Origin: a virus | Lineage: Duplodnaviria; Heunggongvirae; Uroviricota; Caudoviricetes | IMG/VR virus record: IMGVR_UViG_2880361019_000007 | Reading direction: 5' to 3' (one strand) | DNA length: 46,314 bases | Part shown: piece after piece, positions 6,001-9,000 of the stretch | Layout of the letters: each line of letters opens with the position of its first letter | Position numbering within the stretch: position 1 is the stretch's first letter | Position numbers: made by a program

Positions 6001-9000
6001 CATCTAATGTTCTTTCTACGTACTGGGATTATTTGCAGTTTGCATTATTTGAATCAGAAGAAATAATATTGTTTGGTTACTCTGGTCTCGATATTCACCT
6101 TAACCTGCTTATTCGACCTTACCTAACCTCTAAGCCTTTAAGAGTAATTGAGTGGAGCGGTGCTGGTGAACAAAACGCTCGTGAGATATATTGGAAAAAC
6201 CAGTTGAGACGGGAAGTTACTGTAATTAGGTTGGATAACATCACTGATTTTATTGATTGGTAGCGCAATGCGAAGTTAAAGAGGCAGCCTCATATTTATC
6301 AGAGCTGGTGTACGTCCAATACAGGAGGTTATCGTGCTGGTTCTCAAATGCGCGCTGGCTATTGCGGCTGTAGTGGCAATTTATTGTCTTGCTATTGTTC
6401 TTATGGATCGCCTTTCTGATTGATTTTATATTGGCGAGGTGACGGGAGTTAAGTAGAATTGCTGCGGGTGCTTGAGGCTATCTGCCTCAGGCATGAACAC
6501 CAAAAGGCAGATAGAGAAAAGCCCCAGTTAACATTACGCGTCCTGCAAGACGCTTAACATTAATCTGAGGCCATATCTATGCGACACATAGAGATTAGCC
6601 TCTTACGGACCAAAAGGTCAAGGAGAAGCAGGCTATGAAGCAGCAAAAGGCGATGTTAATCGCCCTGATCGTCATCTGTTTAACCGTCATAGTGACGGCA
6701 CTGGTAACGAGGAAAGACCTCTGCGAGGTACGAATCCGAACCGGCCAGACGGAGGTCGCTGTCTTCACAGCTTACGAACCTGAGGAGTAAGAGACCCGGC
6801 GGGGGAGTAATCTCCCGCCACCTCTGATGTGCCAGGCATCCTCAACGCACCCGCACTTAACCCGCTTCGGCGGGTTTTTGCATTAGTCTGGTTGACAAAA
6901 ATAGAAAAATGCGAAAATATGTGGTTTACGAATTCTAAAAAAAGCGAAACTTGAAATGAATGAAAATCAGTTAGCTCCTTGTTGGGAATTTCAACCTTAT
7001 CTTGCTGAAAACTATGTTCGCCACTTGTTGGCGGAGATCGCTAACGTACTTGAGCAGCTGTACTATCATAAGCACGCATTAGACAGCAACTGGTCTGAAG
7101 GTGTAAGGGCTTATGATTGGGTCAGAAATCATCTTATTCAAAATGAAGATGCAATTCCTGGCCTTGAGATGATTTCCAAGGGGTTGGACTATGTAGTTGC
7201 TTTAAATAAAGTTCCGCTACAATTTACCAAAGATTGCATTAATAACCCCAAAAAGAAACATCGTCTGCGTCGAAATAAAGTAGAGTATGAGCAGCTCTCA
7301 TTGTTTGGTGATGTTGAGGCTGAGCAAGATATTACATGGCGAGTCATAGCTGAGCCTTTTTTATCCGAAGAGGGCGATGGTGAATTAGAGTCCACACTGC
7401 CTCGTTGGGAGGTAGCTCTTGTTGGATTTAATACTTATGGTGCTCAGATTAGTATAGTTTCTCATCAATCTACAGCATCGATGCCGCTTATGCCTCTTGA
7501 TTATAACACACTCCCTGACGAAGCGGAGATTAATAAGGTGCCTCTTCGTCGGCGTACGAAGGATAAAGATTTGGATGTGAGCAGTGATGGAACATCAGGT
7601 GAATAACTTCACTGAGTATCGGGGTGATAAGCTCAAACTAGCGAGAATGGCTGTTGGGCTTTCTTGTGAAGAGTTAGCCGAAAAAATTGGCAAGACAAAG
7701 CAATTTGTTAGCAAACTGGAGAAGGGGTGCAGGCCATCGGAGCAATGTCTTGAGTTAATATCTTCAGCGCTTATGATTAAGTCCAGTTTTCTTTTTACTG
7801 AACGAAAATACGCTCTGGAAAGTGATGTCTGCCATTTTCGGAGTAAGAAGTCCAGGACTCAAACGCTGACTAATAGTGTATTGGCCAGGGCTGAGATTCT
7901 TAATATTATAATTTCTGCTGTTGAAGGTGAAATCGAATTTCCTGACGTTAACATACCGGAGCACCCAAGGGCTGAATTACTTACTCCGAATGATATTGAG
8001 CGAGTGGCAGAAGATTGTCGCCGTGCCTGGAATTTAGGTCTTGGCCCTATATCATCAATGGTTAAATTGGCGGAGAGTTTAGGGGTAATCGTTGCGCATG
8101 TTACGGGAGTCGATGATCGTGTTGATGCTTTTACTGTTCACAATAACAGGCCTGTTATCATCAGGAACAATGTTAAAAAAAGCATATGTAGATTTCGCTC
8201 TGATTTAGGTCATGAATTAGGGCATTTAGTAATGCATGAGGGCATAACGACAGGTGATAAACTTACGGAATCACAAGCCGATCACTTTTCGAGCGCCTTA
8301 TTAGTTCCCAGGTTATCTTTCATTAAAGAATTTCCACGAATACGAGGTAAGCAATTCGACTGGAATGCTCTGGTTGAATTTAAACTTAGATGGAAAATCA
8401 GCCTTAAAATGTGTATTTATCGAGCCAGCGCATTAGGCTTATTGACCCAGGAACAGGCAAGAACTGGCTATATGCATCTTAATTCCAGAGGGTATACGAG
8501 AGTTGAACCTGGTGATGAACTTTTGCGCCCTGAAGAACCCGGCATGCTGGCCGAGGCGATTGAAATGCTGGATGATGCAACCTGGCTAAGAATTCTTATG
8601 AAAACTGGCTTGAGCCAAGATTTAATTCGTGAGTTGTTCTCCATCAACAGACCTATTACAAATCCAAGAAATATTTTCCAGATTGTTTGAGTATACCCGC
8701 TTCGGCGGGTTTTTTGTTTTTATTTTCAACGTGTTTGAAGTTTTGGACGGTGCCAGAATAGAATCAAAAATACTTAAGTAGCGCGCAGGGAGAAGAGGGA
8801 TGGACCCCGAACAGGGGGAGTGCTATTTATCTGGAAGGATTCTGTTGATGAAAATCGAAGAATTACGTGAAATTTTTAGTGAAGATGGCCTCTATACTGT
8901 GCGCGTTGAGAATGGCGCTATTGTCAGCCACTGCCGTATTAAATGTTTACAGTCTCTACATAGGAAGAGTGGAGCTGCGTTAATTTACTTTGTGGATGGA

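Follow-up and report, generated by a model that had tools for sequence, protein, structure and literature searches.

Positions 6431-6880 of a 46,314-nucleotide (nt) stretch of viral DNA (Duplodnaviria; Heunggongvirae; Uroviricota; Caudoviricetes; IMG/VR virus record IMGVR_UViG_2880361019_000007; hereafter the window) very likely form a complete type I toxin-antitoxin cassette of the hok/sok type, which carries a hokD toxin allele and works by the scheme of plasmid R1 and prophage Sp5. The cassette is an ordinary representative of a known system, already named hokD in RefSeq, and nothing in it goes beyond the hok/sok family. Its host replicon is a lambdoid prophage (DicF/DicB-type) of O55:H7-type Escherichia coli, and the cassette sits in the early region. 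The mechanism that we propose below is drawn by homology from R1 hok/sok and from hokW-sokW of Sp5; the sequence analysis itself establishes the toxin family, the homology of the leader, a tac/fbi pairing and mRNA fold that are conserved and covary, and a mok start, an antisense promoter and an antisense terminator that are present and conserved. We infer the transcript ends, the 3' processing, the translational coupling, the action of Sok, the toxicity of this copy and its biological role.

Toxin gene, leader and predicted antisense gene

The 51-amino acid (aa) open reading frame (ORF) upon which the cassette is built matched the Pfam family HOK_GEF (PF01848) with E = 1.2e-23 (82.9 bits, cut-off 22), in line with a sequence-only reading of the window, which had assigned it to the Hok/Gef family. 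The hokD-type label given in the same reading is right for the protein, which is identical to HokD of E. coli K-12, and the DNA is identical to K-12 hokD from 6621, in the hok Shine-Dalgarno (SD) sequence, to about 6881, save four substitutions in the 3' untranslated region (UTR). Window positions 6400-6900 are a 100% match to O55:H7-type E. coli chromosomes, for example CB9615 and 2013C-4465, where the 100%-identical coding sequence bears the RefSeq name hokD (WP_000813254.1) and is annotated as 'type I toxin-antitoxin system toxin HokD'. The NCBIfam models of the Hok family scored the ORF below their cut-offs only (48.5 bits vs 73), and none of the PADLOC models matches Hok. According to a bioRxiv preprint, all studied Hok homologs lysed cells when their coding sequence was overexpressed, except HokB and PndA of R483.

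A covariance-model search for the hok/sok RNA, which had been suggested as a check, returned Rfam RF01794 ('sok') at 6466..6637 on the plus strand with 107.5 bits (gathering score 59; E = 1.3e-23), over the full model (positions 1-157); on the minus strand the same model reached just 16.5 bits. The match runs from the mRNA 5' end into the hok ATG, so what the model describes is the leader of hok, and the antisense gene lies inside the matched leader on the other strand. Weak Rfam matches to ceN48, rsmX and isrK were far below their gathering scores and were dismissed as chance or terminator-driven. We placed the start of the hok mRNA at about 6466 because of the promoter spacing (about 7 nt downstream of the -10) and of position 1 of the Rfam model. 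The promoter-like site itself has 9 of 12 consensus matches, and a -10-like GTAGAAT or GTATAAT stands at the same aligned place in relatives. The earlier description of a folded leader beginning at 6480 was right about the structure, since 6466-6634 folds at -58.3 kcal/mol (z = -4.53, with 0 of 200 shuffles as stable), but not about the start, which lies near 6466.

For comparison, 53 genomic loci were gathered, and the 36 with complete leaders, from Escherichia, Shigella, Kluyvera, Pseudocitrobacter, Citrobacter, Pantoea and Photorhabdus, were aligned with MAFFT. The features of the window copy are as follows.

6431-6459, plus strand: hok promoter-like site, with -35 TTGGCG (6431-6436), 17-nt spacer and -10 TAGAAT (6454-6459); consensus scan
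6466-6880, plus strand: full-length hok mRNA, about 415 nt, predicted ends; promoter spacing, Rfam match and intrinsic terminator
6466-6477, plus strand: tac (translational activator) at the mRNA 5' end, GGGUGCUUGAGG, 12 nt; pairs with 6840-6852 in the minimum free energy (MFE) fold
6520-6527, plus strand: ucb or anti-SD box, AGCCCCAG; folds, names after PMC9841398
6567-6570, plus strand: mok SD, GAGG, 8 nt upstream of the ATG at 6579; invariant in the 36 loci
6576-6592, plus strand: mok start-codon hairpin, stem UCUAUG/CAUAGA with a 5-nt loop, predicted Sok target; MFE folds
6579-6638, plus strand: mok-like leader ORF of 19 codons, MRHIEISLLRTKRSRRSRL, whose TGA (6636-6638) overlaps the hok ATG (ATGA)
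6597-6602, plus strand: dcb box, AGCCUC, alternative partner of the mok SD; enforced fold
6511-6585, minus strand: predicted Sok-like antisense RNA, 75 nt, with 5' tail, long hairpin and UUUUCUCUAU; sokC alignment
6592-6621, minus strand: Sok-like promoter, with -35 TTGACC (6621..6616), 18-nt spacer and -10 TAATCT (6597..6592); read from the sequence
6620-6625, plus strand: hok SD, AAGGAG, 9 nt ahead of the ATG; sequence
6635-6790, plus strand: hokD ORF, 51 aa; Pfam HOK_GEF, DNA identical to K-12 hokD (b1562)
6773-6775, plus strand: Tyr47 codon TAC in TACGAA, candidate site of TadA A-to-I editing (Tyr to Cys); conservation
6798-6819, plus strand: 3' UTR stem-loop, GGCGGGGGA / UCUCCCGCC (6798-6806/6811-6819); fold and repeat search
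6840-6852, plus strand: fbi (fold-back inhibitory) box, CCUCAA-C-GCACCC; complementary to tac, duplex -21.1 kcal/mol
6859-6880, plus strand: intrinsic terminator of hok mRNA, AACCCGC UUCG GCGGGUU followed by UUUU; terminator scan (hairpin 6859-6876 plus T-run)
8695-8714, plus strand: hok terminator, second copy, at the distal end of the RosmerTA insert; exact repeat

Within the leader, an antisense Sok gene with promoter, 5' tail and terminator hairpin appears to be present, as the sequence-only reading had suspected. The annotated ends of K-12 sokC align to 6585 and 6511, and the RNA thus delimited spans the mok SD and start codon and is predicted to fold at -31.9 kcal/mol (z = -5.74) into a hairpin plus UUUUCUCU. 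Moreover, TTGACC or TTGCCT together with TAAYCT-like hexamers occur at the same place in all 36 loci. By analogy to the paralogue hokW-sokW, for which this was demonstrated (PMC8621323), Sok of the window would be transcribed and its hok mRNA processed at the 3' end.

Fold-back of the hok mRNA and its precedents

The transcript 6466-6880 folds with an MFE of -170.3 kcal/mol (z = -7.25). The fold-back that had been suggested from self-complementarity of the leader takes the form of long-range pairing between the 5' and 3' ends (6466-6477 with 6840-6852), not of pairing within the leader. The fbi box is positioned between the 3' hairpins 6798-6819 and 6859-6876, and together with the terminator it makes up the last 40 nt or so of the mRNA. 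Both hairpins, and a duplication of the terminator, had been noticed from the sequence, and all three hold: the 20-nt terminator ACCCGCTTCGGCGGGTTTTT is repeated exactly at 8695-8714, where the chance expectation is 0 matches. By analogy to R1, the 6798-6819 stem-loop is expected to protect the 3' end of the processed mRNA.

The partners of tac change with the length of the RNA that is folded. In the nascent RNA (MFE of the first 45 nt), tac pairs with 6484-6494 in a metastable hairpin; in leader-only MFE folds of 75-175 nt it pairs with AGCCCC of ucb (6520-6525); and in the full-length fold, where tac is held by fbi, ucb is bound to CUGAGGC (6565-6571) around the mok SD. Enforcing the tac/ucb pairing on RNA trimmed to 6839 brought the mok SD (GAGGC, 6567-6571) into pairing with dcb (GCCUC, 6598-6602). 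In these models, tac/fbi pairing followed by the tac/ucb and SD/dcb alternatives would reproduce the scheme described for R1 (PMC9841398).

Comparison of the 36 loci supported this fold. Because the MAFFT register misplaces half of the fbi box between Escherichia, which has a bulged C, and Photorhabdus, which has no bulge, tac/fbi pairing was scored locus by locus with a duplex search. A 12-bp tac/fbi duplex was found in 36 of 36 loci, at -17.9 to -25.0 kcal/mol, with compensatory changes: GGGUGC/GCACCC becomes GGGCGC/GCGCCC (tac position 4, U:A to C:G, in 11 loci), GAGG/CCUC becomes GAGA/UCUC (tac position 12, G:C to A:U), and GAAG/CUUC is also present. Applied to the 36 loci, the full-length fold of the window left 87.1% of cells paired, vs 40-47% in slid controls, and 38 pairs had changed on both sides, vs 14-21 in those controls; 0 of 500 shuffles reached the observed values. 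Because the structure itself came from the sequence of the window, the paired percentage is inflated; the double changes are not accounted for in this way. The tac/fbi helix (helix 1) was 90.7% paired with 3 pairs changed on both sides, and the 6798-6819 stem-loop (helix 16) was 97.6% paired with 2 such pairs. Among the short boxes, GAGG and GCCTCTT (dcb) are invariant, and GCCCC (ucb) is invariant or nearly so. We also observed that tac/fbi complementarity reaches 3 nt further (6463-6471 with 6847-6855, TGCGGGTGC/GCACCCGCA, 9 of 9) in the hokD group only; transcription may therefore begin a few nt ahead of 6466.

The same elements occur in the same order in hok/sok (parB) of plasmid R1: promoter, tac, ucb, the mok SD and start in the Sok target, dcb, hok SD, Hok/Gef ORF, 3' stem-loop, fbi and terminator, with Sok within the leader. 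In both loci 19 mok codons lie upstream of the hok start, and the Rfam model is matched at full length here. The two differ in several respects. The window copy is on a prophage and R1 is a plasmid; the toxins are only distantly similar, the near-identical paralogue HokW being 44% identical to R1 Hok (PMC8621323); the hairpin that sequesters the SD and terminates Sok is longer in the window; and R1 mok runs out of frame through hok for 70 codons, whereas mok of the window stops at the hok start.

The closest experimental precedent is hokW-sokW of the Sakai prophage Sp5 in E. coli O157:H7, likewise a hok/sok locus of a lambdoid prophage, with a nearly identical leader and a 51-aa toxin. The published primers and probes match the leader of relatives, and one probe corresponds to the window equivalent of 6558-6585. 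Experiments showed hokW-sokW to be a functional type I toxin-antitoxin system: northern blots revealed a Sok of 71 nt, inactivation of the sokW promoter by mutation caused the expected toxicity, RNase III and Hfq were required, and the pair gave faster lysis and doubled phage release after induction (PMC8621323). The predicted Sok of the window, at 75 nt, compares with 71 nt for sokW. The HokW C-terminus, read from the primers, is ...VFVDYESEK, vs ...VFTAYEPEE here. Further differences are the sequence around the mok start, where the 5' tail of Sok has its target, and the in-frame 70-aa mok carried by loci with a sokW-type leader (L007).

The short mok frame and competing explanations

By homology to these two systems, a weak promoter would give rise to a stable hok mRNA of about 415 nt. 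In the nascent RNA, the 5' tac would be held in a local hairpin; in the full-length RNA, tac/fbi pairing would lock the mok ribosome-binding site against ucb, so that ribosomes and Sok would both be excluded. Slow 3' trimming to the 6798-6819 stem-loop would then remove the fbi box and the terminator, and the ensuing tac/ucb pairing would expose the mok SD. Ribosomes on the 19-codon mok would pass the hok SD and stop at the ATGA overlap, leading to hok translation. While a quiescent prophage is present, the unstable antisense RNA of about 75 nt (6585..6511) would pair with the mok SD and start and block mok, hence hok, and the Sok-mok duplex would be marked for RNase III. Loss of Sok, either with the DNA or on prophage induction as shown for sokW, would allow the 51-aa membrane toxin to be made.

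A mok-like frame at 6579..6638 had been proposed before, and it stands: the ATG, the GAGG and the TGA over the hok ATG are all in place, in what is a shortened allele. The predicted antisense RNA has a 5' tail complementary to the hairpin around the mok start. Relatives retain the mok SD and ATG while the frame downstream varies, in keeping with the R1 finding that translation of mok matters only as far as the hok SD (PMC9841398). Three types are defined by the position of the mok ATG relative to hok.

mok ATG at -57: in frame with hok, encoding an N-terminally extended Hok of 68-70 aa, as in K-12 mokC
mok ATG at -58: R1-type +1 overlap, 55-69 aa
mok ATG at -56: 19 codons, TGA over the hok ATG, the window type

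Indels of 1-2 nt separate these frames in loci with 96-97% identity. Compared with its nearest relatives (96-97% identical, same flanks), one of the -58 and the other of the -57 type, the window has a 2-nt deletion directly after ATGC; an allele repaired by two added nucleotides would read ATGCTAGAC. We also compared 80 IMG/VR phage contigs that encode an identical HokD: 66 have an in-frame mok, 11 share the 19-codon allele of the window in at least four different flank contexts, and three are fused to relE and have no leader. The 19-codon allele is therefore no private lesion. We also considered whether the 2-nt deletion had removed a U-turn (YUNR) motif from the target loop, and dropped the idea, as hokC-type loops are without the motif too.

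Several observations weigh against a working cassette. The 2-nt deletion shortens the mok frame and reduces the target loop from 7 to 5 nt, which could weaken coupling or Sok binding. For the 3'-trimmed RNA, a closed form is predicted at -145.6 kcal/mol, which is 7.6 kcal/mol more stable than the form with enforced tac/ucb pairing (-138.0 kcal/mol): the MFE of this RNA retains the metastable 5' hairpin with a closed mok SD, not the open tac/ucb pairing. As the open form had to be enforced, folding alone is no demonstration of the switch. The antisense promoter has just 8 of 12 consensus matches, for which reason a generic promoter scan did not list it; the same scan recovered the hok promoter and listed another minus-strand site at 6452..6423. 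HokD reportedly needs a Tyr-to-Cys RNA edit that occurs at only about 6% in K-12. Finally, chromosomal hok loci tested earlier gave no post-segregational killing (as cited in the bioRxiv preprint).

In a rival reading the cassette would be structurally complete but silent or decaying, the 2-nt deletion in the mok/Sok-target hairpin being disabling and Hok left untranslated because of the truncated mok frame and the smaller target loop. The nearest relatives have the two additional nucleotides and long mok frames of 55-70 codons, chromosomal hokA, hokB and hokC gave no killing, the K-12 copies are inactivated, and silence has been proposed for most chromosomal hok loci. In R1, moreover, premature mok stops upstream of the hok start abolish toxicity (PMC9841398). 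The same R1 work, however, showed that mok translation is required up to the hok SD and is dispensable beyond the hok start. As the mok stop of the window lies past the hok SD and overlaps the hok ATG, ribosomes would cross the whole region required in R1; by this analogy the 19-codon allele is probably functional. The recurrence of the allele among the phage contigs argues in the same direction, as does the separate origin, through a different indel, of an equivalent 19-codon/ATGA layout in hokC-type loci of E. ruysiae and E. whittamii. Every other element is intact, and we consider a silent copy unlikely.

It may also be asked whether hokD is mainly a passenger of a longer prophage read-through transcript, as in relBEF of K-12, the leader and antisense being non-regulatory relics. 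The genes around hok all lie on the same strand, and a leaderless hok directly follows relE in K-12, in the three phage contigs mentioned above and in a Kluyvera genome. In the window, however, hok has a full leader, promoter and fbi box, all of them structurally constrained; read-through RNAs would bear extra 5' sequence, whereas the conserved pairing uses the exact 5' end; and the homologous Sp5 locus is controlled by its own Sok. This explanation thus seems very improbable. A complete cassette working in the manner of R1 and Sp5 remains by far the preferred reading.

With regard to the editing, TACGAA (Tyr47-Glu48, 6773-6778) is nucleotide-invariant in 36 of 36 loci from five genera, despite available synonymous codons. 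This invariance fits the reported TadA A-to-I editing of this Tyr codon to Cys in hok mRNAs; the K-12 hokD mRNA is edited at about 6%, and the Cys coded by editing occurs at this position (PMC12214031).

The variation is concentrated in a small region. Among 65 distinct loci with an identical HokD, a set chosen for its identical Hok protein, the most variable 20 nt are 6570-6589, that is, the mok-start hairpin and target of the Sok 5' tail. A hypervariable Sok-target hairpin fits a diversification of Sok specificity among the several hok/sok copies of a genome (median 2, up to 10 places). We tentatively suggest, as a possibility that we hold with less than even confidence, that the 19-codon ATGA form is a functional termination-reinitiation variant and that the frames and hairpin reflect selection for private Sok specificity.

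Related loci and prophage setting

Comparison with K-12 hokD (relF, Qin prophage) distinguishes two forms of the same gene. Both lie in the same type of prophage neighbourhood (dicF, dicB, rem, Q), but in K-12 relE ends 71 nt upstream of hokD, and the promoter, tac, ucb, mok start, Sok transcript region and Sok -10 are absent. The window copy is not the third gene of a relBEF operon: no relBE lies upstream, and its own promoter and full 169-nt leader stand there instead. As judged from the sequence, K-12 hokD is the truncated form and the window copy is the complete form with all RNA control elements. The K-12 copy has been inactivated by rearrangement, according to the literature. The leaderless relE-hok junction was also observed in Kluyvera sp. 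CHPC 1.2972 (L027), with a Hok 70% identical and the same join upstream of the hok SD, as well as in loci L006 and L043 and in IMG/VR loci L092, L096 and L137. Its presence in Kluyvera shows that the relBE-hok fusion is no accident of K-12.

The hokC/mokC/sokC locus of K-12 has a leader with 81% column identity to that of the window, and tac, ucb, SD and dcb are common to both. There, mokC is an in-frame N-terminal extension of HokC of 69 aa, compared with 19 codons for mok of the window, the SD hairpin is 18 nt shorter, and IS186 disrupts the locus downstream. Sequenced temperate phages (94-96% identity) and 258 plasmid records (query coverage of at least 80%) also carry the intact form represented by the window.

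Upstream of the cassette, the prophage carries dicB, a Cro/CI pair, a YdaT-family gene and a DUF977 gene, and an Rfam scan of the window placed DicF at 360-411; downstream are RusA, Q and three tRNAs. The same scan located STnc100 (13709-13898), three tRNAs (13383-13629) and two identical copies of the small RNA STnc490 (26151-26274 and 26862-26985), 711 nt apart.

Immediately upstream of the hok promoter we observed an unannotated hydrophobic 29-aa ORF, MLVLKCALAIAAVVAIYCLAIVLMDRLSD (6334-6423, plus strand), with a GTG start and a strong AGGAGG SD; 45 nt separate its end from the start of the hok transcript. Its amino acid sequence has been conserved in at least 19 hokD loci, where the substitutions are conservative, and a form about 55% identical is found in 7 more loci, 77-79 nt upstream of tac; a few records label it 'membrane protein' or 'hypothetical'. 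The ORF may encode a second small membrane peptide that travels with hok. Further upstream, an IS1 copy (about 5127-5894; insA 5181..5456, insB 5375..5878; Pfam DDE_Tnp_IS1, 2.7e-78) interrupts a SIR2-like gene, which is intact in CB9615 (319 aa) and is left here with a C-terminal fragment at 5880..6263; the window is therefore distinct from CB9615.

On the other side, the 1.8 kb from 6881 to 8714 is an insert relative to K-12 Qin and phage Rac, because K-12 continues with the post-8714 sequence after the hokD terminator. The insert holds RmrT (6956-7606, PADLOC 4.6e-25) and RmrA (7584-8690, 5.6e-105; Pfam HTH_3 and Peptidase_M78), which by sequence are an adjacent two-gene RosmerTA anti-phage system and not part of the hok locus. 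At this spot RosmerTA is absent from K-12 Qin and phage Rac and is present in H9, H12 and phage Tritos.

As a discovery the locus is of small value, since the system is a textbook one and Rfam detects it. The mildly new points are limited to a natural short-mok allele, three interchangeable mok frames, and variation concentrated in the Sok-target hairpin. Nevertheless, the locus is a reference for the intact ancestor of the truncated K-12 hokD/relF, and its position within a prophage defence/moron hotspot, with an IS1-disrupted SIR2-family gene on one side and the RosmerTA insert on the other, bears on the purpose of prophage hok loci, be it maintenance, lysis timing or phage defence. It also offers a naturally occurring allele whose mok ends precisely where hok starts; if its proposed function is true, the 19-codon allele would be natural evidence that only the passage of ribosomes over the hok SD matters.

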